DNA of 64,000 nucleotides from a virus (lineage: Duplodnaviria; Caudoviricetes), in the IMG/VR virus record IMGVR_UViG_3300036987_000420, positions 1 through 64,000 of that record; one strand, 5' to 3'. Below are positions 13,480 to 44,413 of this stretch, one piece after another (positions within the stretch are counted from its first letter, which is position 1; each line of letters starts with the position of its first letter). The position numbers and the translations under genes are program-made. The notes under the pieces were generated by a model. It searched no databases. It saw only the letters and a program-made list of their open reading frames with translations, and was not told the origin of the DNA.

Positions 13480-15944
13480 CAGGCCGCCTCGCCTTCCCCG
13501 GCCGCAGCCGCCGTCTCGGCCTGCGCCGCGAGCGCCGCGCGGACGCGCTTCTTCTTCGCGGTGTCGGCGGCGACCATCGCCGTCGACTCGCGCTTCGCGG
13601 CCTCGCGGACCTCGGCGCCGCACTGGCAGCCGCGCGCCCGGTGGGCGTCGACGCGGATGCGCTGCCCGTCGCAGAAGACGTAGTCGGTGGGCTCCAGGCC
13701 GCCGGCCTCCGGCGGGTCCGGCACGACGGCGCCGGCCTCGTCGACCACGGCGGCCGGCGAATGCTGGTGCGCGTCGCAGACGAACACGGCAGGCGTCCGC
13801 GGGCTGTCGCGGTGCGCCTGGACGATGGCGACGCCGCTGCCGGCGAGCTTGTGCGCCAGGTCCGGCACGACGACGCCGGCGATGCCCTCGGCGACGTCGA
13901 CCCGCATCGCGCAGAGCACGGCGGACAGTCGGCCGGCGCGCTGCTCCTCGGCGAGCACGCGCACCAGGCGGATGGCGCGGTCGGTCTCGAGCGCCTCGAG
14001 CCGGTCGATGACGACGGCGCGGAAGGGTGCTACGCTCGGATCTCCCTGCGACTGAAGGGATTGAGACGCGTACATCAGCGCGACGCCGCAGACGATCTGC
14101 TCGCTGTCGCTGAGCGCGGAGTAGGGGCGCCAGGCGTCCGACCCCTCCGGCCCGCCGGCGTCGAAGGTGACGAGACCGAAGCCCCAGGCAGCGGGCTCGT
14201 CGCCGTTCGCGGGCAGCGGCCGGAACGCGAAGCCGCGCGCCAGCGGGTCGCCGCCGTACACCGGCCGGACGATCCGGTCGGCGTGCGCGGTCACGGCGGC
14301 CGCCGATCGCCGCGCCAGCTCGACGCCGAACGCGCCGAGCGCGCGCTCCAGGGCCCCCCAGGTCGCCCGCGCCAGGATGGCCGCGTCGAGGTCGGCCTCG
14401 TTCGCGGCCCGCAGGCGCTCGGCCTCCTCGAAACCGGCGAGCCGGGCGACCTGGTCGGACACGGCGGTCAGATCCGCCTCGCGCTTGTCGCGCGCCCCCT
14501 CCAGGTCGCCGACACCCTCGAGCGGCGGCAGGGCGGCGAGCGCCTGCTCCGCGGCGACGAGCTCCGAGCGGGCGGACGCGACGACCGCGGCGGCCTCGGA
14601 CCGGGCGCGCTCCCCGGACGCGGCGCGCTGGGCGGCGGCGTGCGCGGCGCGCAGCGCGTCGGTGGCGCTGCGCTCGGCGTTCTCGGCCTCGCTGGCGGCG
14701 GCGTAGGCGTCGTCGGCCGCCCGCCGCGCGGCGTCGCCCCGCACCCCGAGCACCGCCTCCCGGCGCGCCAGTCCGGTGCGCTTCTCCTGGATGGCGGAGC
14801 GCGCGGCGTCGAGCGCGCCGCCGGTCGTGCCGCAGGTCGGACAGTGCCCGTCGGCGAGCGCGACGAGCGTCTGGTCGATGCGCGACAGGTCGCCACGCAC
14901 GTCCCGCAGCTTCGCCTCGACCTCGGCCGCGGCGTTGTGCGCGGCGACCGCCGCCGCGCCGAGCTCCTTGCGGCGCGCGGTGGCGGCGTCGGCCGTCGCC
15001 TGGGCCTGCGCGACGGCGCCGGGGGCCGCCTCGGCTGGCGCCTGGGCGGCCGCGCCGGGCCGCTGCTCCGCCGCGGTGACCCGCTGCCGCGCCGTCTCGA
15101 CGCGCGCCGCGGCCCGCTGGCGCTCGGCCTGCGCCTGGGCACGGGCGGCGAGCTTCTCGCGGACGGCGGTCAGCTCCTCGCGGACGCGGCGCTCCCGCGC
15201 CTGGGCGTCGGCCAGCGTCCCGGGCGGCAGGTCGTCGCGGCGCAGGTCGACCAGCCGGCCGCGGGCCTTCTCGGCCTCGGCCTTGCGCCTCTGCCACTCG
15301 TTCTTCTGGACGCGCGCGTGCTCCTTCGCGCCCTCCAGTCCGTCGGCGGCGAGCGCCTCGGCCACGGCGGCGAGCTGCGCCGCGTCCGGGCGGCCCTGGC
15401 GCGGCTGCCCGCGGGCGTCGTCGTACTCCACCTCGGTCCGGCGCAGGCGGTCGTCGAGGTCGGCGCGGATGGCCGGGTCGGCGAGCGTCACGCCGGCGAC
15501 CTTCGCTACCAGCGCGGCCTGCTTCTCGGTCGTGAGGCTGATGAAGTCGGCGAGGTCGGTCGGCTGCATCCGCTGCGCGCCGAGGTGCGCGGCGAGACCC
15601 GCCTCGACCCCCTTCGCGTCCTTCACGAGCGGCTCGTCGCCGATGCTGAGGCGCGCCTCGTGCTTGGCGCCCAGGATGCGGGTGAGGCGCAGCGGCCGGC
15701 CGTCGCTGGTCTCGCCCTCGACGCCGAGCTCGACGCGGCCGCAGTCCGCCGCGATGTCGCCGAGCTGCGCCGGGGTGGCGCTGCCACCGATGCGGGTGCC
15801 GAGGGCGAGATGGCAGGCGAGCAGGCGGGCCGACTTGCCGCTGCCGTTCGGGCCGACGACCAGCGTCGGGCGGGTGAGGTCGAGCACGAAGCGGCGGCCC
15901 TTGACGCCGTCGCCGTCGGCGATGATGGTGCGGATGGTGGTCAT
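13479..15944 (-). CDS. Rad50/SbcC/SMC-like ATPase with coiled coil and zinc hook
   Basis: Walker A GPNGSGKS, long coiled coil with central CPTC hook, signature LSDSE, Walker-B-like VVIDRLE. Confidence 0.85.
14030..14067 (+). CRISPR. Solitary CRISPR-repeat-like unit C, inside the SMC-like gene (antisense)
   Basis: CTACGCTCGGATCT-CCCT-GCGACTGA-AGGG-ATTGAGAC; 4-bp stem, 8-nt loop, 8-nt handle-like 3' end; not part of an array. Confidence 0.65.
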
Positions 15945-16255
15945 CGAGTCCCCCCTCGGTGCCGCAGTGCGGCGATGATGGTCCGGGCGTCGGCGGCGCC
16001 GATCCTCGCGCCCTTCTCCCCTGCCTCGACGGCGCGCAGGCGGTCGATGGCCAGCGCCAGGTCGCTGTCGTCTCGCTGCTCGGCCGCGCGCACCACGGCC
16101 GACACCCGCTCCACGTCGCGCAGCGTCGCCGACACCGCGGTCATGTAGAGCGCGCGCGGCGTCGCCCGGGTCAGGTCGATCGCCCTGCGATGGTCGGCGT
16201 CCTCGGCGTCGGAAAGACGCAGGCGCACGCAGTGCGGACGAGGCGCTCTGTTCAT
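15941..16255 (-). CDS. Hypothetical protein, possible RHH-like N-terminus
   Basis: GGAGAGGA RBS; VRLRLSDAE pattern; coupled to the SMC-like gene. Confidence 0.5.
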
Positions 16256-16499
16256 CTGCAGAAGTCCTCTCCAGAAAAGGAGCGTCGTGCCTCGCCGGTC
16301 GGACGCGTCCAGTCGCGCTCTCGGGGCAGTCGGTGCGGTCCGTCGTTCGTACACCGCACAGGCACGTCGTTTTTCAGCGCCCCTCGCTCCTTGCGCCCCC
16401 GGGTGGAGTCGGACCACCCTGGCGAACCCGCTCCTGGACGCGCGGGCTGCCTCCCCGGTAGGGGCACGCCGGGCCACAACACGGGCCCGGCCGGCGCTG

Positions 16500-17822
16500 C
16501 TACGCCGCCCGCGTCGCCAGCGTCGCCAGGGCGCGCAGCGTCTCCTCGAGGATGGCGGCCTGGGCCTCGTCGGCCGCCCAGCTCCCGTCCTTCGCCGGCC
16601 GCGGGAACTCCGGGTCGTCGGCCCGGATCTCGTCGAGGGCCTCACGCAGACGCGCCTTCGCGGCGTCCATGTCGCCGCCCTCGAGCTCGAGCGCGACGCC
16701 GCGGACGTGCTGCCACAGCGGGGACGGCCCGGACCCGTTGCTCGGCGTCCGCGACTCGGCGGCCGGCTGCGGCGCCGGCGTCTCCGCCGGGAGCTGGTCC
16801 GCCGGCTCCTGGTCGGGCGCCTCGACCGCGTCGTCGACCTCCTCCACGTCCTCGACGTCTTCGATGTCCTCCTCGGGCTCCGACGGCAGGTCGGCGGCCG
16901 GGGTCGCGCGGACGAGTGGCTCCTCGACGTGGGCGGCGAGCTGCGCCAGGGGGCGGGCGCCGGCGCCCAGCACGCGGCCCGACTCGTAGGCGGACTGCGC
17001 CGCCTCGATCATCGCGAGGGCCGGGCCGGCGAAGCCGAGGTACACCGTCCAGACCCCGGCGGCGCCGTGGGCGGTGCGGCTGCGCTTCATGCGGAGCAGC
17101 AGCGGGACGGCGGAGAGCGTCGGGACCTTCTCCTCGTCGACCAGCCGCTGCAGCTCGTCGATGACGCCCTGCGTCTCGTCGAGGCCGATGATCGACTTGC
17201 TGCGGTAGCGGACGACGCCGAACGTCGACTCCAGCGCGGCGAGCTGCAGGCGCAGCTCCCACTCCGCGGCGCAGCGCGGGAACACCGGCTGCTTCCCGGT
17301 CGCGTCCATGCGGGCGTACCACGGGCACTCCGTGCCGTTGCAGACGACGGTCGTCGCGGCGCCGAGGTCGTTCTCCGCGCCGACGGGCTTGAAGCCCTGC
17401 GGCAGCGGCGCCACGACGCCGTCGTCGGACACGCGGTGCCGGTGGCACGCCGTCTGGCCGTCGCCCTGGCAGACGACCGTGTCGCCGTCCTTCGTGCGGG
17501 CCCGGAACTGGCTGCCGAAGATGCCGTCCAGGTCGCGCGCCGGCGCGAGGTAGACGCGGATGGCGCGCAGCTTGGCCGTGGGCTCCTCGGGCGCCAGCCG
17601 CGCCTGCTCCTCGAGCAGCCGCGCCATGAGGGCGTCGTCGACCTGCCGGTTGCCGGCGGCGTCGTCGGGGTCGACGCCGGGCAGACAGACCTCCATGTAG
17701 TCGAGCCGCTCCGGGTAGGTCGGACGGCCGTCCTTCAGGCGCCGGCGGCCGATGCGGATGTGCCGCTCGGTCGGCAGCGTGCCCACGGCGCGGCCGGGGC
17801 GCAGGTTCACGATGCGGGGCAT
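16500..17822 (-). CDS. Gp3-like (recombination directionality factor-like) family protein
   Basis: IRIG.R...G.PTYPERLDY, VCQGDGQTA, C.G..CPWY...C...L.LQL...G..RY.SKS; acidic linker tail; GAGGA RBS. Confidence 0.65.
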   Translation of the reverse strand: MPRIVNLRPGRAVGTLPTERHIRIGRRRLKDGRPTYPERLDYMEVCLPGVDPDDAAGNRQVDDALMARLLEEQARLAPEEPTAKLRAIRVYLAPARDLDGIFGSQFRARTKDGDTVVCQGDGQTACHRHRVSDDGVVAPLPQGFKPVGAENDLGAATTVVCNGTECPWYARMDATGKQPVFPRCAAEWELRLQLAALESTFGVVRYRSKSIIGLDETQGVIDELQRLVDEEKVPTLSAVPLLLRMKRSRTAHGAAGVWTVYLGFAGPALAMIEAAQSAYESGRVLGAGARPLAQLAAHVEEPLVRATPAADLPSEPEEDIEDVEDVEEVDDAVEAPDQEPADQLPAETPAPQPAAESRTPSNGSGPSPLWQHVRGVALELEGGDMDAAKARLREALDEIRADDPEFPRPAKDGSWAADEAQAAILEETLRALATLATRAA

Positions 17823-17857
17823 GGTGTCCTCCTCTCGCGGCCGCTGGGCGGCCGGTG

Positions 17858-18043
17858 TCAGTCGTGGTCGCGCTCCCAGGCCGCGTCCGTGGCACGGTCC
17901 TCGGCGAGCGACTCGAGGTGCGCGATGCGGCGCTCCCGCGCCTCGTCGCCGGTGTCCTGGCACTCGTCGTCGCTGCGGTGGATCCCACCGCATCGATTGC
18001 ACACGTCGGGCAGATCGCACCACTCGACGGCCATGCTCGTCAT
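17858..18043 (-). CDS. Small hypothetical protein with CxxC..H
   Basis: CNRCGGIH...C; coupled start. Confidence 0.55.
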   Translation of the reverse strand: MTSMAVEWCDLPDVCNRCGGIHRSDDECQDTGDEARERRIAHLESLAEDRATDAAWERDHD

Positions 18044-18324
18044 CCTCGCAGCTCGCACTCGTAGAGGTCGCGCAGCGTGCACACGCCGGCCGGACACTGC
18101 CCGGGGCTCGGGCACTCCACGAACGGCACGGCGCAGTCCGCCAGCGCCCCCGGGAAGGTGCGCACGGGCCGGCCGGCCACGCGGCCGCAGACGGCCACCC
18201 GGATGCGGCCCAGGCCGACGCCCGGGACGGCGTCGTCGAGCGGCGCGCAGGCGCCGGTCAGGGCCCACGGCGCGACCACGTCGGGGTGCGGGTTCGTCTG
18301 GTAGTCGTTGGCCCGGTTGCGCAT
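18040..18324 (-). CDS. Small Cys-rich hypothetical protein
   Basis: GAGGAGGAGG RBS. Confidence 0.55.
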   Translation of the reverse strand: MRNRANDYQTNPHPDVVAPWALTGACAPLDDAVPGVGLGRIRVAVCGRVAGRPVRTFPGALADCAVPFVECPSPGQCPAGVCTLRDLYECELRG

Positions 18325-18616
18325 CGCTTCCTCCTCCTCGAGCGAGAGGGGTGCCCCGGGCCGGCGGCAGAGTCGGCAGGCCGCCGGCCCGGGGCTGGAG
18401 GAGGACACGGGCGCCGCATCCTGCTGGCGTCCCGGCAGGTCGCCGCGCCCGGCGTGACGAGAACGGCTCCGCTCGGCTCGCCGGTCCGGCGAGTCTTTGG
18501 GCCGTGCTCGCCACGCCGCGCGTGGCGACGGGCTCTGTCCTCCCCCCGTGCCCGGCAGGGTGGTCACGAGGCGCTCTCTGGCAGCCAGGTACGGAAGGAG
18601 AGGCGTACAAAGGCGG

Positions 18617-18691
18617 CCTCCCGGTCGGTGGTACTCTCGTCGTGCCACCGACGTCCCCGACGTGCGGGGATGAGACACACCGACAGGGAGG
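18617..18691 (+). promoter_or_regulatory. Inverted-repeat cassette with extended -10 promoter and degenerate CRISPR-repeat-like leader (unit D)
   Basis: IR arms CCTCCCGGTCGGTG (18617-30) / CACCGACAGGGAGG (18678-91); TG-G-TACTCT; GTGCCACCGACGT-CCCC-GACGTGC-GGGG-ATGAGAC (18642-76). Confidence 0.5.
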
Positions 18692-18696
18692 CCAGG

Positions 18697-18993
18697 ATGG
18701 ACGAACTACGGATCCCATTCGTCGTCGCGTGCGACTGCGGCGCGAGTTTCTGGGTCGACGCCCAGCAGCTTGCGACCCCGGGCCTGGTGTTCCAGTGCCC
18801 ATCGTGCCTGACGTACCACCGGAATGTGCTGAGCCCGGCGCCAGAACTGGTACGGTCGTTCGCGGCCCGTCACGCCGCGCTCCGAGACGTCGTCAAGCGT
18901 GGAGGCCGCGTAACACAGGCCATCGAGAGCGACCTTCCGTTCGTGCGCGGCGAGCGGGAGTCGCTCGACGATCCGGGCTGCAAGCCGCAGTAG
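18697..18993 (+). CDS. Zinc-ribbon protein, counter-oriented to the left operon
   Basis: CDCG...CPSC; GGGAGG RBS; own promoter. Confidence 0.65.
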   Translation: MDELRIPFVVACDCGASFWVDAQQLATPGLVFQCPSCLTYHRNVLSPAPELVRSFAARHAALRDVVKRGGRVTQAIESDLPFVRGERESLDDPGCKPQ

Positions 18994-19065
18994 CCAGACC
19001 ACGAACAGCACCCGCCGCAGCCGAACCACCCGCCCGGTCGCCCGGCCCGCGTAGCGCAGAGACAT
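18706..19065 (-). CDS. Hypothetical first gene of the PL operon (overlaps the zinc-ribbon ORF antisense)
   Basis: Strong GGAGGAGGGGAGG RBS just downstream of PL; could be a shadow ORF. Confidence 0.4.
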   Translation of the reverse strand: MSLRYAGRATGRVVRLRRVLFVVWLLRLAARIVERLPLAAHERKVALDGLCYAASTLDDVSERGVTGRERPYQFWRRAQHIPVVRQARWALEHQARGRKLLGVDPETRAAVARDDEWDP

Positions 19066-19275
19066 GGCCCTCCCCTCCTCCGTCCTGGTTGCCACAGAGC
19101 GACCCGTGCCCGCCCTCTCCGCTCCCCCGCACCGTCGGTCGCGCGCTGGGTCATGGCCCGGCCGGCGGGGTCGGGCTCACGCGCCGGAACGCGCTCACCC
19201 GGTGGTCCGCGGCCGACGACGGCTGCGGTCGCCAGCGCGCTGCGGGGCTGTCAGAGATCGCCGAGCACGAGGGGG

Positions 19276-19328
19276 ATATTAGGAGCTGCCTAATCAGGCG
19301 TCAAGTGCAAAATTAGCCCGCCCCTAAC
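19276..19328 (-). promoter_or_regulatory. Leftward early promoter PL with operators OL1/OL2
   Basis: Minus strand TTGACG-N17-TAATAT; palindromes ATTAGG-AGCTG-CCTAAT (19278-94) and ATTAGC-CCGCC-CCTAAC (19312-28). Confidence 0.85.
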
Positions 19329-19394
19329 TGTTCGGCCGCGCCGGCCGGCAGCGGCCATCGGTGCGGCGAAGTGCGGCGGACGGGAGGGGTGGGG

Positions 19395-19613
19395 CTACAG
19401 CAGCGCGACGAACTCGTCGGCGGTCAGCTCGGCGGCGCGCAGGATGGCGGCCAGGGTGCCGCGGTCCAGCTCGTGGTGCAGGGGGACGGTGACGGGCGGA
19501 CGGCCCGGACAGGTGAGGCGGGCGTGGCTGCCGCGCTGGCGCGCCACCACGTAGCCGAGGCGGCCCAGCGCGCGGACGCAGACGCGGCCCGAGACGACGG
19601 GCAGCTCGGCCAT
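19395..19613 (-). CDS. hicA: HicA-family mRNA interferase toxin
   Basis: LPVVSGR....AL.RLGY...RQRGSHARL......VTVPLH.ELDRGTLAAILR.A. Confidence 0.93.
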   Translation of the reverse strand: MAELPVVSGRVCVRALGRLGYVVARQRGSHARLTCPGRPPVTVPLHHELDRGTLAAILRAAELTADEFVALL

Positions 19614-19834
19614 CAGGCCGCGACCTCCACCCGCACCACCTCCACCGTGCCGGGCAGCTCCCAGCCCTCGGCGGCGCGGTTCTCGAGGCACAGCGCGATG
19701 GCCTCGCGGATGCCGTCCAGCGCCTCCGCGCGGGTGCGGCCCTGCGAGACGCAGCCGGGGATGACGGGGCAGGTCGCGACGACCCAGCCGTCCTGGCCCG
19801 GGGTGAGGATCACGGGGAGCGACGTCGGCGTCAT
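19613..19834 (-). CDS. hicB: HicB-family antitoxin (short form, no DNA-binding domain)
   Basis: DGWVVATCPVIPGCVSQGRTRAEALDGIREAIALCLE; coupled upstream of hicA. Confidence 0.93.
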   Translation of the reverse strand: MTPTSLPVILTPGQDGWVVATCPVIPGCVSQGRTRAEALDGIREAIALCLENRAAEGWELPGTVEVVRVEVAA

Positions 19835-20043
19835 GGGCACCTCCTCGACCGAGGATAGCGCCCGCACGGCACGGGCGCCAGGGGACGGTGCGGGCGGCAG
19901 CGCGCGGCGACGCGGCGCTCGACGCGCTTCGGGAGCGCCAGCAGGCGCGCGACCTCGGCGTCGGACAGCTCGGCCACGCCCTCCTCCTCAGTCGCCCCGC
20001 CAGCCGCCCGGGCGCCGCAGGCAGGCGCCGCGCGCCCCGCAGA

Positions 20044-20577
20044 TCACGATCCGCGTCGCGTCCGCGTACCGGACCGCCGCCGCGCCGGCGGCTCCTCGAG
20101 GGCCGCGTCGTCCAGGTCCTCGTCCTCCGCCGGGTCCGACGCCGACGGCGCGGGCGGGGCAGGCTGCGCAGCCGGCGGAGAGGGGCGCGGCGAGGTGAGC
20201 GCCGCGGGCGGTGGCGGCGCGTCGGGACGATCCTGGGCGGAGAAGAGCAGCGCCTGGCGCAGCGACTCGGGCAGCGCCAGCACCCAACGGCCGACGTCGA
20301 TCTCGTCTGTAGATGCGCGTCCCGGGCTGTCTGCGAGGCCGACGAGATAGTCCAGCGAGACGTCTAGTGCGCGGGCGAGTGAGACGGCGTTGGGGAGAGA
20401 TGGACAGCTCTCGCCGTGTTCTATTTCCCAAAGGCTGGGCGGCTTTACACCCATCCGTCGGGCGATCTCGGCCTGCGGCACGTCATCACGTGCCTCGACG
20501 ACCCGCTTGCTCAGGATGCGCTTGATCTCGTCCCTGTCCACCCGGCCATCATGCAATCCAACGCCGCGATTTGTCAC
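20044..20577 (-). CDS. cI: CI-like XRE/HTH repressor (no obvious S24 peptidase domain; start uncertain)
   Basis: VPQAEIARRMGVKPPSLWEIEHGESCPSLPNAVSLARALDVSLDYLVG; divergent from cro. Confidence 0.85.
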   Translation of the reverse strand: MTNRGVGLHDGRVDRDEIKRILSKRVVEARDDVPQAEIARRMGVKPPSLWEIEHGESCPSLPNAVSLARALDVSLDYLVGLADSPGRASTDEIDVGRWVLALPESLRQALLFSAQDRPDAPPPPAALTSPRPSPPAAQPAPPAPSASDPAEDEDLDDAALEEPPARRRSGTRTRRGS

Positions 20578-20995: not shown

Positions 20996-20996
20996 G

Positions 20997-29063: not shown

Positions 29064-29828
29064 ATGGCACGTCCGCCCGTCCCGACGACGAATCCGCTGG
29101 GCGCCCGCATTCGGTCGGCCCGCGAGGCGCGTGGCCTGAGCCTCGTCGAGCTGGCGGCGCGACTCGGCGTGAACCCGCGAACCGTTCGGGCCGCCGAGAT
29201 GGAGGGGCGCGGCAAGGCCGTCCCGCTGGCGTGCGACATGCTCGGCGTCTCCTGCAACGTCGACGACGACTGCGACGACGACTGCGACGCCGCGGACCCT
29301 CGTGCGTGCCAGGAACCCCGCGTCCCGAGCGGCCCGCCGGCCGCCTGTTCCTCTTTTGCGACCGAGAGTGAGACGCGGCGCGTCATGGAATCCGCCGCCA
29401 GCGCGGACCAGCGCGAACGCGGCCCAGACGCGTTTGCGCCGATGCCGACTGCGACGACGACTGCGACGACGGCGACGACTGCACCGTCGGCCGGTGCGAC
29501 CCCTGCACGTCTCCGCGTCGGCCGACGCGCCAACGGCTCGCTGCGGGGCGTCACGCTGAACATCAGGCGGATCGGGCAGGAAGTGCGCGTTTCTGGGCTC
29601 CAGCCGCCATCGATGCGAGAGATGCTGGCCGACCTGAGCACGCAGGCGCTGCGGGCCTGCGTCGTCGTCGCGCTGCGGCAGGACGGCTCCCGGTTCTGGG
29701 AGATCCAGATGGGCGCCGCACGGTCCCAGGCGGAGCTCGACGCGCTGGTCGCGGGGCTGCGGTACGCGGAGCACGACCTGTTGAGCGAGTGCGCGCAGAC
29801 GGTCCACGACACGGGCGGGAGGGGCTGA
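29064..29828 (+). CDS. XRE-family HTH protein with low-complexity linker
   Basis: LGARIRSAREARGLSLVELAARLGVNPRTVRAAE. Confidence 0.75.
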   Translation: MARPPVPTTNPLGARIRSAREARGLSLVELAARLGVNPRTVRAAEMEGRGKAVPLACDMLGVSCNVDDDCDDDCDAADPRACQEPRVPSGPPAACSSFATESETRRVMESAASADQRERGPDAFAPMPTATTTATTATTAPSAGATPARLRVGRRANGSLRGVTLNIRRIGQEVRVSGLQPPSMREMLADLSTQALRACVVVALRQDGSRFWEIQMGAARSQAELDALVAGLRYAEHDLLSECAQTVHDTGGRG

Positions 29829-37337: not shown

Positions 37338-37374
37338 GCGCCGCGCCGCCGCACACCGCAGGGAGACAGGTTCC

Positions 37375-38007
37375 ATGCCACTCAAGCTGTCCGACCACAA
37401 GGAACGCCTGGGCGACGCCTACGAGACCTTCAAGGCAGAGATGAAGGCGCTCGAGGACCGCATCAAGGCGGCCGAGACCGAGCGCGACACCTTCAAGACG
37501 CAGGCCACCGAGGCATCGACGAAGGTGACCGACCTGGAGAAGAAGCTCGGCGCCGTCGACAAGACCGTCGACGAGCGCGTCCGGGCCGCCGAGGCGGAGC
37601 GCGACACCTTCAAGGCGCAGGCCGAGCAGATGAGGGGCCAGCACGAGGCGCTCACGAGGGACTTCGACGGCCACAAGCTGGACGTCGACATCTGGGAGAC
37701 GGCCCGCGAGAAGGGCCTCCGCCGCCGCGCCTTCCTCTCGCACCTCGACCGCGCCAGCGTGAAGCGCGGCGCCGACGGCAAGCTGGAGGGCGTCGACGAC
37801 GCGCTGGAGGCGCTCAAGGCCTCCATGCCGGAGACGTTCGGCGAGGCCGCCCCGCCCGCCGTCCCGCCCGTCACCGACCACGGCAGGGGCGTCAAGCCCC
37901 CCGCCACGCCGCCGGGCGCGGGCGGCGCCGAGGACATCCGGAGCATCGTCGCGAAGGGCCTCCAGGCCACCGGGGCCGTCCCGGCCGCGCCCGCCACGAC
38001 GCACTGA
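37375..38007 (+). CDS. Capsid scaffolding protein
   Basis: Coiled-coil N-terminus, DGKLEGVDDALEALKASMPETF, Pro/Gly tail; upstream of capsid genes. Confidence 0.8.
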   Translation: MPLKLSDHKERLGDAYETFKAEMKALEDRIKAAETERDTFKTQATEASTKVTDLEKKLGAVDKTVDERVRAAEAERDTFKAQAEQMRGQHEALTRDFDGHKLDVDIWETAREKGLRRRAFLSHLDRASVKRGADGKLEGVDDALEALKASMPETFGEAAPPAVPPVTDHGRGVKPPATPPGAGGAEDIRSIVAKGLQATGAVPAAPATTH

Positions 38008-38129
38008 GCCGACACCGACGCAGACACGCCGGCCCGTCCGGCTGAGCCGCAGACACGCCGCACGCCGCGGGGCGCGCGGGGACGCACACATCCGCTCGGG
38101 CCAGTAGCCCGGCAGGGGAGGGCATCGCC

Positions 38130-38768
38130 ATGACCATGGGCGCAGGCCAGGGGCCGTTCGTCATCAACCACGGGATCGAGTCGGACGTCGTGTGGCGCCT
38201 CAACGACCACGGCGAGCTCGCCGCGGCGCGCCCCATCATGGTCGCGTCGGGCAACGGCACGACCCCGTTCGGCAAGATCGCCGGCGGCACCATCATGGGC
38301 AAGATGTCCTCGGGCACGAAGAGCGGCATGTACCGCCCGTGCTTCAAGGGCCTCGTCAACGGCAACCAGGCGGCGGTCAACGAGGTCCTGCTCGTCGCCG
38401 GCCAGGCCGCGAACGCCTACGTGGGCGACGTCGTCAAGGTCGTCCGGCCCTCGACCGGCGCCGTCGTCGCGAGCACCCGGACGCTCTCCGTGGTCAACAA
38501 GACCACCCACAAGGTCACGCTCAGCGGCGCCGCCATCACCTTCGAGGACGGCGACCTCGTCATGCTCGAGAACGGCGCCGGGACGGCCAAGGCCGCGACG
38601 GACCGCGCCATCGTGACCACGTACCAGAACAAGGTCACGGGGCTCATCGCCGAGCAGGACCAGGGGCCCTGCAAGCTGTGGCCGGTGGCCATGGTCAAGG
38701 CGTCGAGCCTCCTGACCGGCTGGAACGCCTACGTGGCGGCCGACCTGCCCGGCTTCATCGTCGACTGA
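38130..38768 (+). CDS. Head decoration/cement protein (tentative)
   Basis: Between scaffold and MCP; G.IAGGTIMGK. Confidence 0.6.
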   Translation: MTMGAGQGPFVINHGIESDVVWRLNDHGELAAARPIMVASGNGTTPFGKIAGGTIMGKMSSGTKSGMYRPCFKGLVNGNQAAVNEVLLVAGQAANAYVGDVVKVVRPSTGAVVASTRTLSVVNKTTHKVTLSGAAITFEDGDLVMLENGAGTAKAATDRAIVTTYQNKVTGLIAEQDQGPCKLWPVAMVKASSLLTGWNAYVAADLPGFIVD

Positions 38769-38881
38769 CCGCGCCCGGCGGCGCCCGCTCGTCATCGGCG
38801 CCGCGCCGCCGGCCGGTTCGCACTCGCATCGCATCGTCCCATGCTCGCGGGCGTTCCGACCCGCACACAGGAGGGGTCCAG

Positions 38882-39910
38882 ATGGCCTTCACGCTGCTCG
38901 CTCGCGAGACGCTCCGCGAGAACTTCGTCCAGATGCTCGTCGACACCGACGAGTTCCCGCTGTTCCCGCTGTTCGGCATCACGGCGCCCCCCGGCCCGGG
39001 CGGCTCGCTGGCGGCGCTGCAGTTCCGCTACGTCGCCGAGGGCGGCAAGCTCAAGATCCGCGTCCACAAGCCGGCGCAGCAGCTCCTGACCGTCCAGGAC
39101 ATCAACCAGGCGTCGCCGAAGCTCAACCGCGGCACGGTCGCCGAGACCGAGGTCGGCCCGGCGTTCGCGCGCGGCCACATCGTGCTGACCGAGGCCGAGG
39201 CGTCGCTCTCCGAGATCGTCGCCGGAGCGGCGACCCCGGCGCAGTGGGCCGAGCTGCAGCGCCTGCTCTCCGAGGGCGACATCCGCGACGCGGTCCTCCA
39301 GACGCTGCACGCCTGGTGCGTCAACGCGCTGCTCGGCACCGCGACCTACAGCATCGACGGCCTGACGAAGTCGGCGAGCTGGGGCCTGTCGACCATCCCG
39401 CGGCCGACGACGAAGTGGTCGACCCTGGCGACCGCGACGCCGCTGAGCGACATCAAGGCCGCGAAGACCGTCTTCAACCAGACGAACGGCGCGGACGCCG
39501 ACCCCGACACGATCGTCTTCAGCCCGACGGCCTGGGACTGGGTCGACGGCGCGACCGACACGATCACCCAGCGCAAGTACGTCGAGGTCCTCCAGAAGGC
39601 GAGCCTCGAGGGCAAGCCGTACGACCTCATGGGCCTGCGCTGGCTGGCCGTGAAGGGCCGCTACGCCGGCGCCGACCGCTGGCCGGCGAACCAGGTCGTG
39701 CTCGCCCGCTTCGGGAACCCGCTCGCCGGCGGCACGCCCACGGTGAAGTTCGAGACCTGCAAGCTCCGCGAGAACCAGTTCGCCGGCGGCGCCGCGGTCT
39801 ACACCGAGGAGCAGAAGGACCCCGACCAGGTCAAGCTCATCAGCTCGCTGAACGGCGTCGCGGAGATCGTCCGCCCGTCGTTCGTGCAGACCTGGGAGAT
39901 CAACTGGTAG
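38882..39910 (+). CDS. Major capsid protein (lambda gpE-like)
   Basis: 342 aa; GAGGGG RBS; W..NALLG, W......PLSDI..AK, PD.IVFSP.AW. Confidence 0.8.
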   Translation: MAFTLLARETLRENFVQMLVDTDEFPLFPLFGITAPPGPGGSLAALQFRYVAEGGKLKIRVHKPAQQLLTVQDINQASPKLNRGTVAETEVGPAFARGHIVLTEAEASLSEIVAGAATPAQWAELQRLLSEGDIRDAVLQTLHAWCVNALLGTATYSIDGLTKSASWGLSTIPRPTTKWSTLATATPLSDIKAAKTVFNQTNGADADPDTIVFSPTAWDWVDGATDTITQRKYVEVLQKASLEGKPYDLMGLRWLAVKGRYAGADRWPANQVVLARFGNPLAGGTPTVKFETCKLRENQFAGGAAVYTEEQKDPDQVKLISSLNGVAEIVRPSFVQTWEINW

Positions 39911-40038
39911 TACCGGCCAGGGCCGGCGCCAGGGCTGCGGCCCGACGCCGGCCCGACCGGCTACCAGCGTCCCCCTGACCGCCACGTCCATCCCGCCTGC
40001 GCGTCCCTGCGACGCCGGCGGCGGAACCAGGAGCCATC

Positions 40039-40323
40039 ATGGCCGCACAGAAGCCGCCGGCGTTCGTCCGCTTCCTCGGCAACCACCCGCTCGGGCACAT
40101 CCGGAGCGGCGACGTCTGCCGCAACCCGGACCCGAAGCACCTCGACGGGACGGTCGGCTTCGTCGTCATCGACGAGGCCGAGTTCCGTCGCTTCACGTTC
40201 ATGACCTTCGACGCCACGCACCTCTCGCTGAAGCCGGAGCCCGAGAAGGCCCCGCCGGCGAAGGTGAAGAAGAACGCCGCGGACGCCGCCGACAGGCGGG
40301 ACGACCCGGCCGCCGAGGGCTGA
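40039..40323 (+). CDS. Small head-associated hypothetical protein
   Basis: AGGAG RBS; after MCP. Confidence 0.6.
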   Translation: MAAQKPPAFVRFLGNHPLGHIRSGDVCRNPDPKHLDGTVGFVVIDEAEFRRFTFMTFDATHLSLKPEPEKAPPAKVKKNAADAADRRDDPAAEG

Positions 40324-40364
40324 GCGCCTCGGCCCGCGCGTCCGCCGCCAGCCGGAGGTGACCC

Positions 40365-40598
40365 GTGCCGTACCCCGACTACACGACCACCGAGTGCGAC
40401 GAGGCGATCGTCGCCATCGACGCCGAGATCGCCCGCCTGCGACCGCTGGCGGACGCCTACTCGCTGGGCGGGGGCCGGCACTTCGCGCAGGGCCAGAAGG
40501 TCCAGCGGCTCCAGGCCGAGCGCTCCGAGTGGGTGGCGCGCAAGCTCGCTGCCGAGGGCTCCGGCGCGCCGCTCCAGTTCGAGTGCGAGCTGACGTGA
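40365..40598 (+). CDS. gpW-like head-tail joining protein
   Basis: 77 aa; CDEAI.AIDAEI...AYSLGGGR...LQAER; GGAGG RBS. Confidence 0.6.
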   Translation: MPYPDYTTTECDEAIVAIDAEIARLRPLADAYSLGGGRHFAQGQKVQRLQAERSEWVARKLAAEGSGAPLQFECELT

Positions 40599-41047
40599 TC
40601 GTCTCAATCCCCTTGTCTCAATCCCCTCACGGGCGGGGTCCGCAGCGTACCATGATCGACGCCGACGCCTACGCCGAGCAGGTGGCGATCCACCTCGCGG
40701 AGATCCTTCCCGAGGAGCCGAACGCGATCCGCGTGCGCCTGGCGGGCGGCACGCGCAACATCGTCGGCGAGCTCGTCGGCGCGACCGAGACGCGCCTCGA
40801 CCTGCGGGTCGACATCCGCCCCTACCGGCGCGCCGAGCGTGGCGCGGCCGGCGAGGCGGAGCGCGGCGACACAGCCATCGCGCTCCTGGAGGACGCGCTC
40901 GAACCCGGCGACCTGGTCGAGGCCGAGGGGCACCGCTACCGCGTCATCGCGGTGCAGCCCCGCTACCTCGCCGGGCGCGTCCACTGCTACGACGCGACGG
41001 CGGAGCGCCTCGACGTCGAGCGCGGCTCGCCGGTCGTGGACGGGTAG
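40595..41047 (+). CDS. Head closure/head-tail adaptor (alternative start ATG 40652)
   Basis: Position in the neck module; GDLVEAEGHRYRVIAV; coupled GTG at 40595 is in frame with ATG 40652. Confidence 0.6.
   Translation: MIVSIPLSQSPHGRGPQRTMIDADAYAEQVAIHLAEILPEEPNAIRVRLAGGTRNIVGELVGATETRLDLRVDIRPYRRAERGAAGEAERGDTAIALLEDALEPGDLVEAEGHRYRVIAVQPRYLAGRVHCYDATAERLDVERGSPVVDG
40601..40650 (-). CRISPR. Solitary CRISPR-repeat-like unit A (36 nt) plus tandem 14-nt partial copy
   Basis: Minus strand GTACGCTGCGGA-CCCC-GCCCGTGA-GGGG-ATTGAGAC (40650-40615), then AAGGGGATTGAGAC (40614-40601). Confidence 0.7.
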
Positions 41048-41068
41048 CGCCGCCGGGAAGGCTCCGCC

Positions 41069-41623
41069 GTGCCGAGCTTCGTCCACAAGGTCACCGCCCA
41101 GCAGCGCGCCGAGCAGCTCCGGCAGCACGTGCCGAACGTCATCGCCGCCCAGCGCCGGGCGCTGTGGCGGGCGGCCGAGAAGCACCGCGGCGAGGCCGCC
41201 GGGGCGACGCCGGTCGACCAGGGCACGATGCGCCGCGCCTGGGACGTCCACGACGAACCGAACGCCGTCGTGCTCGAGAACGACGCGCCGCACGCGGCCA
41301 TCGTCGAGCTCGGCCGCCGCCCCGGGAAGTGGCCCCCGGGGCAGTACAACCACCAGGCCCTGATGTGCTGGGGCGGTCCGATCTACGACTGGGTCTGGCG
41401 CAAGACCCGCGTCTCGATCCAGGCCGAGCTCGGCCGCGGGAAGCGAGCGACCGGCCAGCGGCGCCTGCGGGTCGCCCGGCTGGCGTACCTCATCGCGCGG
41501 GCCATCGCGATGCGCGGCATCGAGCCGCAGTTCATCGTCGAGCTGCGCCTCATCCCATGGGCGCAGGACGTGCTCCGGGAGATGGAGCGCGCCTACGCCG
41601 AGCTGCTCGGCCGCAGGAGATGA
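41069..41623 (+). CDS. HK97 gp10-like neck protein
   Basis: ATPVDQGTMRRAW...V.LENDAPHA.IVELG. Confidence 0.75.
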   Translation: MPSFVHKVTAQQRAEQLRQHVPNVIAAQRRALWRAAEKHRGEAAGATPVDQGTMRRAWDVHDEPNAVVLENDAPHAAIVELGRRPGKWPPGQYNHQALMCWGGPIYDWVWRKTRVSIQAELGRGKRATGQRRLRVARLAYLIARAIAMRGIEPQFIVELRLIPWAQDVLREMERAYAELLGRRR

Positions 41624-41626
41624 GCC

Positions 41627-42235
41627 GTGGCTGCGACCGACCACCTCTGGGATCACGTGGCCGGCGCGCTCGTCACGGGCCTGCGGACCGCGCTCGGACT
41701 CGCGGCGGACCGCTGCCACGTCGGCTGGCCGGCGCCCGGGCAGGGCCCCGAGGCCGGCCCGTTGCCGGCGCTGTCGGTGACGCTCGCCTCCGCCCAGGTC
41801 GCGCTGCGGCGCGCCATCCGCGTGGCGAGCGTCGAGGGTGCCGTCCCGGCCGAGGCTGTGGCGACGTACCAGATCGGCCAGGGGACGGCGACGCTCCAGG
41901 TCGACCTGTGGGCGCCCAGCAAGACGGCGCGCCTGGCGCTCGCCGGGGCGGTTCGTGACTACCTGGTCGGTCGGCCGTCGACGGGGCTGACCGGCCGCAT
42001 CCTGACGCTCGACCGGCTCTCCGAGCGAGCGCGCTACACGGCCGGCCAGACGACCTACGACGACGACGACGGGGCCGGGCCGCGGGCCCTGCTGCCCGTC
42101 TCCGTCCGGGTCCCGTACCTCGTCCGCGAGACGCTGGCGCGGGCGCAGAAGCTCGTCATCGAGTCGCAGCGTCCGGCTGGCTCGCCGCCGCTTCCGGGCC
42201 TCGGTCCGGAGACGCGGATCATTTTCGCGCCCTGA
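41627..42235 (+). CDS. Tail terminator/completion protein (tentative)
   Basis: Immediately upstream of the sheath; LQVDLWA...R..L. Confidence 0.6.
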   Translation: MAATDHLWDHVAGALVTGLRTALGLAADRCHVGWPAPGQGPEAGPLPALSVTLASAQVALRRAIRVASVEGAVPAEAVATYQIGQGTATLQVDLWAPSKTARLALAGAVRDYLVGRPSTGLTGRILTLDRLSERARYTAGQTTYDDDDGAGPRALLPVSVRVPYLVRETLARAQKLVIESQRPAGSPPLPGLGPETRIIFAP

Positions 42236-42275
42236 ACACGCACCGAGGCCCGGAGACGGGCCGCCGGAGGGGACC

Positions 42276-43805
42276 ATGTCCGAGCCCTACTACAGCAACA
42301 ACCCCCTCGACTGGACGGCCCTCGACGGGCTCTACATCGACAAGCAGGACCCGCCGCTGCCGCTCACCGCGGGCGGGGCCGGCGTGGTCGGGTGCGTCGC
42401 CGAGCTGCCGTGGGGTCCGGTCGACACGCCGATCCTGATCGGCGCTCCGATCGCGCTCGTGCGCGCCTTCTTCGGCTACGACACCGACCCCGACTACTAC
42501 TACGGCGACGGCGGCAGCAAGACCGGCTACAAGGGCTGCATCGGCCTCGCGAAGAAGCGGTGGAGCTCGCGCGGCATCTACATCGTGCGCGTCGGCCACT
42601 CCGGCCAGGCGGGGGCCGAGAAGAACCTGATGGACGGCGCGACGCCGGCCAAGATCGCGCTCACCATCAAGGCGAAATATCCGGGCAAGCTGGGCGACCG
42701 CATCCAGTACAAGGTGACCAACAACACGTCGAGCTTCGACCTGGAGGTCCGCTGGGGCGACCGCGCCGAGACCTACGTGGGCCTGACGCTCACCACCATG
42801 GTCGAGCGCGTCGGCGGCAACTCCGATCTGGTCGTCGTCGCGGCGGGCGAGTCCGGCGCAGCGCTGCCGGTCACGGTCTCCTCGTGGACGAACCTGGCGG
42901 GCGGCTCCGACGGCACGCCGGCCGCGTCCGACTACGCGGGCAGCGACGTGTCGAAGGTCGGATTCCGCACGTTCGCCGACTACCCCGACGTCGAGCTGAT
43001 GTTCGCGGCGGAGTTCGAGTCGGACACCCTCGACGCCGCCATGGACGCCTGGCTCCTCGAGCGTGGCTACGGGGTCTTCTTCGCCGGCTGCGCCATCGGC
43101 GACGCGCTCGCCGACGCGAAAGCGAAGCGCGCCGCGCTCATCGCCGCGTCGGATGGCTCGCGGACCCGCATCTGCTGGCCGGGCCTGCGGGTCACGATGC
43201 CGAACGACCGCGTCGTCGACACGATGTCGAGCGGCTGGCAGTGCGCCGCGGCGGCCCAGATCAGCCCGCACCGCGACATCGCCGCGGCCGGCACGAAGAG
43301 CGCCTACACCGGCTGCATCGCGCTGGAGGACGGCGTCCAGATCACGCGGGCCGACTACATCGACGCGTTGAACCACGGCATCGGCGCGATGGAGCAGCTG
43401 TCGTCGGGCGGCTTCAAGGCCCGCAGCGGCATCGTCGCGGACTCCGACGGCAGGCTGCTCCTCCAGGTCCGCATGGCCGACCTCATCCACCGCGCCGAGG
43501 CGAAGCGGCTGGAGAGCTACCAGAACGAGCCGATGGACGCGGAGTGGAAGGAGGGGGTCCGGGCGGCCATCTCCGACTACCTGAAGTACCTGCAGGACCC
43601 GCCGCGCAAGATGCTCAAGGCGTTCAGCGTCGACGACACGTCGCTGAACACGGAGTCCTCCGAGGCGGCCGGCGAGTGGTACGTCGTGCAGAAGGTCCAG
43701 CTCTACCCGCCCGGCCGCTTCATCGTCGTGCGGTCGATGATCGGCACCACGGTCGTCATCACGACCGAGACGTCGGGCGGGGGCGGGGGCGGCATCTCCG
43801 TCTGA
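42276..43805 (+). CDS. Contractile tail sheath protein
   Basis: GVVG.VAE..WGPVDTP, AKYPG..G, GGSDG, C-terminal AISDYL.YL...V.LY. Confidence 0.9.
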   Translation: MSEPYYSNNPLDWTALDGLYIDKQDPPLPLTAGGAGVVGCVAELPWGPVDTPILIGAPIALVRAFFGYDTDPDYYYGDGGSKTGYKGCIGLAKKRWSSRGIYIVRVGHSGQAGAEKNLMDGATPAKIALTIKAKYPGKLGDRIQYKVTNNTSSFDLEVRWGDRAETYVGLTLTTMVERVGGNSDLVVVAAGESGAALPVTVSSWTNLAGGSDGTPAASDYAGSDVSKVGFRTFADYPDVELMFAAEFESDTLDAAMDAWLLERGYGVFFAGCAIGDALADAKAKRAALIAASDGSRTRICWPGLRVTMPNDRVVDTMSSGWQCAAAAQISPHRDIAAAGTKSAYTGCIALEDGVQITRADYIDALNHGIGAMEQLSSGGFKARSGIVADSDGRLLLQVRMADLIHRAEAKRLESYQNEPMDAEWKEGVRAAISDYLKYLQDPPRKMLKAFSVDDTSLNTESSEAAGEWYVVQKVQLYPPGRFIVVRSMIGTTVVITTETSGGGGGGISV

Positions 43806-43902
43806 CCGACAGCCCGAGCGCATCGATCGTCCCTGACACGCCGGGAGCGCGGCCTCGTGTCGCGCCACCCCGCAGACCACGCAGCAGCACCGGAGGGCTC
43901 CG

Positions 43903-44328
43903 ATGGCCGAGGATGTCGTCCTCAGCAGCGACGTGCAGATCCGCGTCTTCAAGGCCGGCGTCCCGATCGGCGCCATCGACGCGACGGGCTTCTCCGTCAA
44001 CCAGCAGGCCGAGGTGCGCACCCGCGCCCTGCTCGGCAGCCGCGAGAAGGACACGTACGTCGTCTACTCGGGGCACAGCGGCACGGTGAGCGTCGAGCGG
44101 ACGAACACCCGCGTCGATGACCTCATCGACAGCCTGGAGACGCAGTTCTTCGACGGCAAGCCGGTCGACGAGATCCAGATCGCGAAGACCGACGCGTACC
44201 CGGACGGCACGCGGCGGACCTACATCTACCAGCGCTGCCGCATCTGGGCGGACGACAGCGGCTCGGGCGACGCGGCCGCGACCATCACGCTGAACTGGCG
44301 CAACGGCAAGCCGCGCGTGAAGGCGTAG
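43903..44328 (+). CDS. Tail tube protein
   Basis: 141 aa beta-rich ORF directly after the sheath. Confidence 0.75.
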   Translation: MAEDVVLSSDVQIRVFKAGVPIGAIDATGFSVNQQAEVRTRALLGSREKDTYVVYSGHSGTVSVERTNTRVDDLIDSLETQFFDGKPVDEIQIAKTDAYPDGTRRTYIYQRCRIWADDSGSGDAAATITLNWRNGKPRVKA

Positions 44329-44330
44329 AC

Positions 44331-44366
44331 GTCTCAATCCCCTCATCGGCGGGGAGCGCCGCCGCC
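44331..44366 (-). CRISPR. Solitary CRISPR-repeat-like unit B (intergenic)
   Basis: Minus strand GGCGGCGGCGCT-CCCC-GCCGATGA-GGGG-ATTGAGAC; 22/24 identical to the unit A core. Confidence 0.7.
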
Positions 44367-44413
44367 CGGCCGCAGGGTAGACGACCACGCCAGGTCACGG
44401 GAAGCAGGACCCG

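Follow-up and report, generated by a model that had tools for sequence, protein, structure and literature searches.

The window analysed in this work is the whole stretch of DNA of 64,000 nt. The element in the window is a prophage integrated in tRNA-Val, and the core of att at 247-291 is repeated at 58947-58991. The phage is temperate and myovirus-like. It carries solitary repeat units that resemble CRISPR repeats, and all of them are located inside the prophage between the attL and attR cores. The features are as follows.

217..289, plus strand: tRNA-Val(CAC), the integration site, with the attL core at 247-291
13479..15944, minus strand: SbcC/Rad50-like ABC ATPase gene that hosts unit 14, with matches to phrog_77, AAA_23, and SMC_N
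14031..14067, plus strand: unit 14, a 37-nt solitary CRISPR repeat unit, TACGCTCGGATCT-CCCT-GCGACTGA-AGGG-ATTGAGAC, in-frame antisense inside the SbcC/Rad50-like CDS and coding 12 residues
40596..40601, plus strand: left copy of the 6-bp duplication TGATCG, which includes the TGA stop codon of the upstream gene
40601..40614, minus strand: unit 40a, a partial copy of 14 nt that reads AAGGGGATTGAGAC in repeat orientation and begins 2 nt past the stop codon of gene 40365-40598
40615..40651, minus strand: unit 40b, a full 37-nt solitary repeat unit, GGTACGCTGCGGA-CCCC-GCCCGTGA-GGGG-ATTGAGAC
40653..40658, plus strand: right copy of TGATCG, which makes the ATG start of head-closure gene 40652-41047 with the last base of the insert
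44325..44331, plus strand: left copy of the 7-bp duplication GTAGACG, which includes a TAG stop codon
44331..44367, minus strand: unit 44, a full 37-nt solitary repeat unit, GGGCGGCGGCGCT-CCCC-GCCGATGA-GGGG-ATTGAGAC, which begins 2 nt past the TAG stop of tail tube-like gene 43903-44328
44368..44376, minus strand: 9 nt more of the insert, which read GGCCGCAGG on the plus strand and separate unit 44 from the right duplication
44377..44383, plus strand: right copy of GTAGACG
58947..58991, plus strand: attR core, a 45-nt perfect repeat of 247-291

The tail ATTGAGAC occurs four times in the 64,000-nt window where 0.29 copies are expected, and none of the shuffles reached four (0/100). No further copy was found in the full 73.6 kb contig. 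All four copies stand in the context GGGATTGAGAC, that is, with GGG directly 5'. Three of them belong to full 37-nt units with a CCCY-N8-RGGG hairpin and the fourth (unit 40a) is a 14-nt partial copy. The pattern common to the three full units is CCCY-GCNNNTGA-RGGG-ATTGAGAC. The stem exhibits a single compensatory change, where the 14 kb copy has CCCT/AGGG and the other full units have CCCC/GGGG. The 5' parts of units 14 and 40b are also alike. The predicted fold of units 14, 40b, and 44 and of the array repeat of genome G002 consists of one hairpin of 4-6 bp with an 8-nt loop, immediately followed by the 8-nt tail. Two of the sites, units 40 and 44, are between genes, and the third, unit 14, is within a CDS. 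The block at unit 40 shares the reading frame of the gene that follows. The contig was searched for cas1, cas6, and a CRISPR array, and none of these was found. The contig also does not exhibit the alternation of repeats and spacers that is typical of arrays, with only four copies and no spacing of 70-80 nt. The positions and sequences of the units that had been given in an earlier note were all reproduced on re-inspection, and so were its claims that the tail is overrepresented with GGG before each copy, that the stem covaries around a fixed 8-nt loop, and that no cas gene or array is visible.

Similar repeats were identified in real CRISPR arrays. The exact-pattern scan of 185,579 species genomes (596 Gb) matched only two loci and both of them (2/2) are real arrays in Myxococcota. 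Further arrays of the repeat family were identified in G255, G188, G086, G121, and G295 using BLAST and pattern searches. The core of unit 40b is identical to a Bradymonadales array repeat at 22/24 positions, and the core of unit 44 shares 23/24 positions with the terminal repeat of metagenome contig L029. Core identity (24 nt) is 19-23/24 between units and real repeats and 16-23/24 among real repeats, and full-length identity (37 nt) is 18-27/37 and 22-28/37, respectively. The identity of the units to the Myxococcota CAPP/RT-associated 37-nt arrays (G002, G255, and G086; Rfam CRISPR-DR10/DR36-like) is within the spread of that family itself. The units are similar to these arrays in length, in the CCCC-N8-GGGG hairpin, and in the GGGGATTGAGAC tail. 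The features of the family that are present in the units are the 3' tail GGGGATTGA(G/A)AC and the length of 36-37 nt, and the AGGG of unit 14 in place of GGGG is offset by its CCCT. In contrast to the arrays, the phage units are solitary, have no spacers, and exhibit only sub-threshold scores in Rfam. The weak Rfam matches are all to CRISPR-DR families, where unit 14 resembles CRISPR-DR10 and unit 40b resembles CRISPR-DR36, with scores of 12-17 bits that are below the gathering thresholds of 38-39. The first 13 nt at the 5' end of each unit also have no match in any array that was found. Chance 12-mer matches were seen elsewhere and they are without the hairpin. Dispersed solitary copies that bear the hairpin were not found in about 460 Myxococcota genomes. 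As judged from the pattern matches, the units are genuine CRISPR-repeat derivatives. The identification of the units as CRISPR repeats in the earlier note is consistent with the exact-pattern matches, which are exclusively real arrays. Its suggestion that the differing 5' halves fit different source arrays is also retained because the real arrays of the family vary in their 5' part too.

Three arrays of the repeat family adjoin genes for a primase-polymerase (CAPP) and Cas1, and some of these loci also have RT-primase, Cas2, and CARF/Lon genes. The genes at the three loci, each from a different genome, are CAPP, Cas1, RT-PrimPol (RT-AEP), Cas2, CARF (Cas_APE2256), and Lon-like genes. Genes of these kinds have been described as type III-associated (PMC8211822). 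Cas6 was not found in two incomplete MAGs. The repeat family appears to go with a type III-style gene suite, as judged from the CAPP, Cas1, RT-PrimPol, Cas2, CARF, and Lon-like genes. The tRNA-Val of the contig and that of Myxococcota genome G250 are 99% identical, and arrays of the repeat family are common among the relatives of G250. The host of the phage is probably a member of Myxococcota, based on the tRNA-Val match and the taxonomy of the arrays only.

Both intergenic units are bordered by direct duplications of 6 and 7 bp. The probability that a 6-mer recurs 30-70 nt downstream as TGATCG does is P = 0.045, and the corresponding probability for a 7-mer such as GTAGACG is P = 0.016. The head-closure protein of the nearest relative (P0034) starts with V (GTG), which is the prediction for the junction without the 57-nt unit 40 block. 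The 9 nt at 44368..44376 may derive from the source array, as a fragment of either the adjacent spacer or the leader. Unit 14 is located between the signature motif LSDSE and the Walker B motif VVID of the ATPase, and no other stretch of the 820-codon CDS has so low a GC3. ATPase homologs (P0006-P0012) were identified, and the alignment shows that homologs, down to about 34% identity, have six fewer residues at unit 14. The unit is also present in P0007, a 99%-identical copy of the ATPase from another sample. No flanking duplication is present at unit 14, which sits in an essential-looking ATPase fold where it appears to be tolerated. The inserts are 57, 52, and about 37 nt in length and their 3' parts differ too. 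The comparative empty-site evidence at two sites (the unit 14 homologs and the unit 40 junction) indicates that the units entered by insertion and that their presence is the derived and not the ancestral state. At least three separate insertion events have occurred later than the split from the nearest known relative, two between structural genes and one in frame in the Rad50-like gene.

All units are antisense to the local gene in 3/3 events and on both prophage arms, according to GC3-based gene calls and protein families. The local gene is the SbcC/Rad50-like CDS 13479-15944 (minus strand) for unit 14, and units 40 and 44 lie in the structural operon (plus strand). The statistics of orientation are weak with three events (1/8). 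Because all units are antisense to local transcription, the mRNAs are predicted to read protospacer-side sequence and then GUCUCAAU, the crRNA anti-tag. With the protospacer-side sequence upstream of it, GUCUCAAU occupies the position of a target's 3' flank. In mRNA sense, with the strand taken from gene orientation, it is complementary at 8/8 positions to AUUGAGAC, the crRNA 5' tag deduced from the arrays. Three further claims of the earlier note agree with these results: insertion is supported by the alignment with relatives (six residues absent from the ATPase homologs and the GTG start in the head-closure gene of the relative), antisense placement by gene calls and protein families that concur for every unit, and the anti-tag by the exact 8-nt complement of the tag on the strand given by gene orientation.

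Self and non-self are reportedly discriminated in type III systems by pairing between crRNA tag and anti-tag (work of Marraffini and Sontheimer from 2010). When the 3' flank of a target is complementary to the tag over 8 nt, Cas10-dependent immunity is lost and the RNA is still cleaved (10.1101/369744). The phage mRNAs, which are predicted to bear the full complement of the tag, resemble this arrangement. In the known case, the anti-tag is on antisense transcripts of the host's own array, whereas the anti-tag proposed here is virus-borne, and no match to the prophage was found among the 242 spacers (0/242) of eight arrays, all of which are from genomes other than the host. The antisense placement looks like a 'self' mark on phage mRNAs that would serve immune evasion.

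Our tentative reading, which we regard as possible and somewhat short of an even chance, is that the solitary repeat units belong to a repeat family with Myxococcota arrays of type III character, were written into the phage by recombination or templated repair, and let the phage escape, through the anti-tag, the spacers that once targeted the three sites. One partner in the recombination or repair would have been a phage protospacer, and the other the spacer that matches it in an RNA-targeting host array, or the pre-crRNA of that array. This would be the most likely origin because every unit opposes local transcription and each insert stops precisely at the repeat/spacer boundary, with native phage sequence next to it. 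[quoted passage not shown] Such a target would be taken as self by type III effectors, where the RNA would still be cut and Cas10 (cOA synthesis and DNase) would stay off. The phage would thereby escape the spacers concerned. Recombination between spacers and protospacers of phages and CRISPR loci, with transduction of CRISPR loci, is said to have been described for staphylococcal type III-A by Varble et al. in 2019. Such recombination would explain the end of the inserts at the repeat/spacer boundary and the orientation that follows transcription. However, that work reportedly describes no stable single-repeat insertions in phage genomes and it does not predict short duplications. Further points against this reading are that simple homologous recombination predicts neither the short flanking duplications nor the 14-nt partial copy, and that one anti-tag protects against one spacer only.

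The units may have no present function, where repeats were copied by past recombination with host arrays, or by integration into and imprecise excision from them. Such neutral scars are unlikely, although a little less so than decoys, and they would agree with derived insertions that have junction duplications, with 5' parts that match no array found so far, and with insertions only at harmless places (two intergenic, and the coding ones in frame). Against them stand the perfect GGGATTGAGAC in 4/4 copies and the hairpin in 3/3 full units, the single orientation relative to transcription, and unit 14, which retains A/T-ending codons despite a gene GC3 of 0.97 and is found again in P0007. All of these points are compatible with recent neutral capture. 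Also unlikely is that the units are RNA anti-CRISPR (Racr) decoys, where small RNAs from the antisense strand, in repeat orientation, would bind Cas6 or backbone subunits and titrate them from real crRNAs. Solitary repeat units on phages have been shown to act so for types I-F, I-C, I-E, and V-A, and candidates have been reported in all types except VI (PMC10651486). The hairpin and the cleavage site are intact in repeat orientation in 3/3 units, and several copies would increase the dose. However, the typical site of a Racr is intergenic and just downstream of its own promoter (PMC10651486), whereas these units are buried antisense in operons with one in a CDS, and a scan for sigma-70-like promoter sites, which has little power at 73% GC, found none at the units. 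The hairpin is also absent from the 14-nt partial copy, and decoys do not predict constant antisense placement on both prophage arms.

The two other explanations are far less probable. A sense-strand signal of the phage itself (a terminator, an RNA-stability hairpin, or a processing or protein-binding site) with a coincidental likeness to CRISPR is disfavoured as very improbable, even though GTCTCAAT is always in mRNA sense and two units begin 2 nt after stop codons of structural genes, a frequent position of attenuators. The 24-nt pattern matches CRISPR arrays only in the 596 Gb of genomes, the sequence is absent from relatives at two sites, and one copy is in a CDS. No U-tract, strong stem, or called terminator is present at the units. 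An intrinsic terminator, which consists of a GC-rich stem and a U-tract, was rejected. The direct duplications of 6 and 7 bp at both intergenic units would fit target duplications of a small non-autonomous MITE-like mobile element with a CRISPR-like hairpin, but this is the most improbable of the explanations. The inserts have no terminal inverted repeats, differ in length (57, 52, and about 37 nt) and in their 3' parts, and have no dispersed hairpin-bearing counterparts in about 460 Myxococcota genomes; unit 14 is without duplication. The terminal inverted repeats and many dispersed copies of a MITE or an IS-derived element were not seen here.

The units are repeat-like sequences on a mobile element, outside an array and with no adjacent cas genes. 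Viral solitary repeat units (SRU) and RNA anti-CRISPRs have been described by Camara-Wilpert et al. (2023; PMC10651486), and Faure et al. (2019), as cited there, also concerns viral solitary repeat units. Like them, the units in this work are single repeats that conserve sequence and hairpin, lie on a prophage away from cas genes and arrays, and are mostly intergenic. They differ in that no upstream promoter was seen, all units are antisense to operons, three separate units are present in the one phage, one unit is translated in frame, and flanking duplications of 6-7 bp are present. The active molecule proposed here is also the phage mRNA with its anti-tag and not a decoy crRNA. Under the rules of SRUFinder, unit 40b might count as a mini-array together with the 14-nt partial copy beside it. 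The class of solitary repeat units is known, and the antisense arrangement with the anti-tag is a variant of it. The locus is a clean test case with three independent insertions, two of them with comparative empty-site evidence, and its junction duplications constrain the insertion mechanism. If the units are decoys or scars, they are one more example of the known class.

Because type III systems tolerate target mismatches, point mutations seldom let phages escape. The counter-measures known against type III are proteins (ring nucleases and Acr proteins) or decoy RNAs. If escape through the anti-tag is true, copying a host repeat beside a targeted site, with the mRNA read as self, would differ from these counter-measures and cost little. 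It would also offer a mechanism for why some of the roughly 2,000 catalogued viral solitary repeat units exist and why they point as they do. It is doubtful, though conceivable, that phages under type III attack acquire heritable 'self' marks in general, where a repeat is written after a targeted transcribed protospacer and Cas10 is silenced for that spacer. Recombination with the array would write the upstream repeat into phage DNA right after the protospacer, or array-associated RT/primase-polymerase enzymes would extend a broken end of phage DNA on pre-crRNA; a few bases copied from the spacer would give the junction duplications of 5-7 bp. If true, this would be a general route of escape from type III that is out of reach of point mutations.

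The repeat-like sequences of the phage consist of three full 37-nt units and one partial copy:

14031 to 14067, plus strand: unit 14, full unit
40601 to 40614, minus strand: unit 40a, partial copy of 14 nt
40615 to 40651, minus strand: unit 40b, full unit
44331 to 44367, minus strand: unit 44, full unit

The three sites of the full units read exactly as the earlier note had given them, and the GGG that it had placed before every copy of ATTGAGAC is present in 4/4 copies (GGGATTGAGAC). The window contains four copies of ATTGAGAC (0.29 expected), a number not reached in any of 100 dinucleotide-preserving shuffles. No further copies were found in the full 73,576-bp contig. The three full units exhibit the CCCY-N8-RGGG hairpin. 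In repeat orientation, all three share a fold with a stem of 4-6 bp, an 8-nt loop, and then a single-stranded tail, and the hairpin predicted for a genuine array repeat is the same. A source array would be expected to have the repeat tail GGGGATTGAGAC, ideally with GGTACGCTGCGGA or GGGCGGCGGCGCT as the 5' half. Unit 14 and unit 40b are also alike in their 5' part (TGCTACGCT-CGGA and TGGTACGCTGCGGA, respectively), which argues for the capture of whole repeats beyond the hairpin alone. The partial copy abuts unit 40b directly.

The pattern that spans all three units, CCCYGCNNNTGARGGGATTGAGAC, was searched in one genome per species for 185,579 species, where about one chance match is expected. 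Two loci were matched and both are real CRISPR arrays, which bears out the reading of the units as CRISPR repeats. The repeat is GAAGAACGACCGTCCCCGCTTGTGAGGGGATTGAGAC in the array of a Bradymonadales MAG and GTCCTGGACCTGTCCCTGCTTTTGAGGGGATTAAGAC in that of a Nannocystaceae MAG, which comprises about 35 repeats. Further arrays of the 37-nt family came from mismatch-tolerant and shorter-pattern searches of Myxococcota genomes (G255, G188, G086, G121, and G295). Between arrays, real repeats agree at 22-28 positions over 37 nt and at 16-23 over the 3' 24 nt; the units agree with real repeats at 18-27 and 19-23 positions, respectively. These ranges overlap, so the units fall within the variation of the family itself. 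In real arrays, too, the first 13 nt at the 5' end are variable. At the three sites, Rfam matched only CRISPR-DR10, DR36, and DR8, with scores well under threshold, and a literature search on the 8-mer returned unrelated primer matches only.

CCCYGCNNNTGARGGGATTGAGAC had no match in viral contigs and was found at three single sites in metagenome contigs. Two of these are at contig ends, as expected of broken arrays, and one of the two (contig L029, from an organism of 73% GC) agrees with unit 44 at 23/24 core positions. The third (L027) is inside a TPR gene at 53% GC and was judged to be a chance match. The end repeat of L029 (Ga0302253_1010863, 2178-2617) follows an AAA_25 (RepA/primase-helicase-like) gene at a distance of 400 nt and is antisense to that gene. 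It could represent either the terminal repeat of an array or a further solitary unit carried by a mobile element; L029 and the prophage are unrelated except for the repeat. A solitary GGGGATTGAGAC was also observed in locus L048 (G265:C90, ~1440-1478) after CCCTGGACCTGCT, a sequence similar to the 5' half of the Nannocystaceae repeat. This copy may be a degenerate lone repeat.

The array neighbours in three genomes of the family are as follows:

G002: CRISPR-associated primase-polymerase (NF040561) and Cas1
G255: primase-polymerase, Cas1, RT fused to an AEP primase domain, and a CARF protein (Cas_APE2256)
G086: primase-polymerase, Cas1, array, RT-PrimPol fusion, Lon-like protein, Cas2, and a second array

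CRISPR-associated primase-polymerases (CAPPs) and RT-Prim-Pol fusions are known from type III-A and III-B loci (PMC8211822). The array family is putatively of type III, judging from this gene context. In two incomplete MAGs, no Cas6 was detected. The G086 locus (L058, G086:C25:394000-413800) is compact, with CAPP, Cas1, array, RT-PrimPol fusion, Lon-like protein, Cas2, and second array in that order; effector genes were not identified in the 8 kb that separates the two arrays, and the locus may be a stand-alone adaptation island.

The phage sequence is that of a prophage of ~58.7 kb, since a perfect 45-nt direct repeat corresponds to the 3' half of a tRNA gene. The features that define its setting are as follows:

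217 to 289: tRNA-Val(CAC)
247 to 291 and 58947 to 58991: 45-nt direct repeat
383 to 1606: integrase
42276 to 43805, plus strand: sheath gene
43903 to 44328, plus strand: tube-like gene

The right arm carries a myovirus-type structural module on the plus strand (terminase, scaffold, head closure, sheath, tube-like, tape measure, baseplate, and endolysin). The left arm carries a helicase, methyltransferases, and an SbcC/Rad50-like ATPase on the minus strand. No cas1, cas6, or array was found on the contig, as the earlier note had stated for cas genes and arrays, and the strong PADLOC matches, among the matches listed (25/63 families), are just the helicase and the methyltransferases. Unit 44 begins 2 nt past the stop of the tube-like gene. 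Units 40a and 40b begin 2 nt past the stop of the gene at 40365-40598, directly ahead of the head-closure gene. Unit 14 is within the ATPase coding sequence. Each unit opposes the local gene on both arms, so the antisense placement claimed earlier also stands.

Other features of the contig were also observed. A strong inverted repeat at 42195-42252 (CGGGCCTCGGT ... ACCGAGGCCCG, arms of at least 11 nt) between the tail-completion-like and sheath genes gives a spurious Rfam microRNA match on both strands and may represent a genuine hairpin upstream of the sheath gene. A plus-strand gene contains short coding repeats of GACGACGACTGCGAC (Asp/Cys-rich), both tandem and dispersed, at 29246-29488. 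A 159-nt direct repeat of 84% identity lies just inside attL (449-607) and just outside attR (59164-59322), and a second integrase is located at ~71.7-72.9 kb of the contig, which together suggest tandem or successive integrations at the tRNA-Val site. The DNA to the right of attR consists of other mobile material without housekeeping genes. From 60963-64131, with the contig running on to 73576 (L001), it carries a gpA-type terminase nuclease fragment, then a group II intron RT/maturase ORF, and further on an AbiEii toxin gene (~64760-65773) and an HNH gene, as well as another tyrosine integrase. The region is a mosaic of decayed mobile elements.

Comparison with related sequences, the check proposed earlier, identified the units as insertions that are not ancestral, from the homolog gap at unit 14 and the relative's GTG at unit 40. 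ATPase homologs at 68%, 46%, 41%, 37%, and lower identity were found by a full-library HMMER search. Between the signature helix and Walker B, all of them have A-MQQLGAR-PFR or a similar sequence, and the phage ATPase has six extra unit-encoded residues at the same place. No other window of the 820-codon gene has a lower GC3 than this stretch, which is also present in P0007, a 99%-identical fragment from another sample. Chance as the origin of unit 14 is ruled out by the lowest-GC3 position, the extended similarity to unit 40b, and the homolog indel.

The unit 40 block (40602-40658) is 57 nt, in frame, with TGATCG on both sides, and the unit 44 block is 52 nt with GTAGACG on both sides. The predicted insert-free junctions are ...ACGTGATCGAC... 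and ...GCGTAGACGACC..., respectively. The former has a GTGA stop/start overlap and a GTG start. The head-closure protein of the nearest relative (P0034, 80% identity, equal length) has the N-terminus V-IDADAYAE; V as the first residue points to a GTG start, as predicted for the block-free junction. The start in this phage is ATG, of which the A is the last inserted base. The probability that such a sequence recurs by chance at 30-70 nt downstream is 0.045 (6-mer) and 0.016 (7-mer). Off-target integration by Cas1-Cas2 would be expected to duplicate a target of repeat length, and as a simple model it was rejected, given the 6-7 bp duplications. The phage has gained single CRISPR repeats repeatedly.

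The relative, of 64% identity, is known from proteins alone (P0002, P0004, P0006, and P0034). The proteins of this virus record are also found on a 96 kb contig. The sheath had no tblastn match in phage GenBank records. Sheath and tube relatives in the viral, genome, and metagenome collections were none or only contig L030 (28% identity, 50% GC), and a single distant match (G069) was obtained from sheath profile searches of two Myxococcota genome sets (151 and 61 genomes). The protein atlas gave no host taxon. The attB tRNA-Val matches that of Myxococcota genome G250 at 72/73 positions; identity is 95-97% in 15 other genomes and 88-90% in G001 and G255, both of which bear arrays. Among 61 relatives of G250, at least 4 have family arrays. 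This tRNA likeness and the arrays among G250 relatives make a Myxococcota host that carries such a system plausible. The 242 spacers of eight arrays, from genomes other than the host's, had only chance matches of 12-19 nt to the prophage. Many GC-rich matches of 19-25 nt to the unit 44 region (BLAST, 401 genomes) were rejected as spacers and attributed to chance.

Each unit stops exactly at the repeat/spacer boundary beside native phage sequence, and the phage mRNA, with its strand taken from gene orientation, carries the repeat reverse complement starting GUCUCAAU. When the 3' flank of a target RNA pairs with the 8-nt crRNA tag, cutting continues, Cas10 is not activated, and immunity is lost (10.1101/369744). 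Repeats may have been captured at protospacers of an RNA-targeting system, where effective spacers must be antisense to mRNA, and an anti-tag would then adjoin the former protospacer. Orientation that tracks transcription on both arms is expected of such capture, and we tentatively favour this reading as a possible one. The anti-tag reading alone leaves the 5-7 bp duplications and the partial copy unexplained. Speculatively, the family-associated RT or primase-polymerase may have used pre-crRNA to extend a broken phage end that was then end-joined, which would duplicate a few bases copied from the spacer. That the units are functionless scars is somewhat unlikely. RNA anti-CRISPR (Racr) decoys transcribed antisense are unlikely, as no promoter was found in a scan that is weak at 73% GC, the units are inside operons and a coding sequence, and their orientation is uniform. 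Elsewhere in Myxococcota genomes, isolated 12- to 15-mer matches are about as frequent as chance predicts and have no hairpin, so the units are not a dispersed REP- or MITE-like family, and a MITE-like element is highly improbable. A phage signal unrelated to CRISPR is very doubtful.

Solitary repeat units have been reported on viral sequences (2,103 units, all types except VI), where some act as RNA anti-CRISPRs (PMC10651486). Viral solitary repeat units are a known class, and the locus is a member of it by the defining sequence features. Compared with characterised Racrs, the locus differs in orientation, the apparent lack of a promoter, multiplicity, the coding copy, and the junction duplications.
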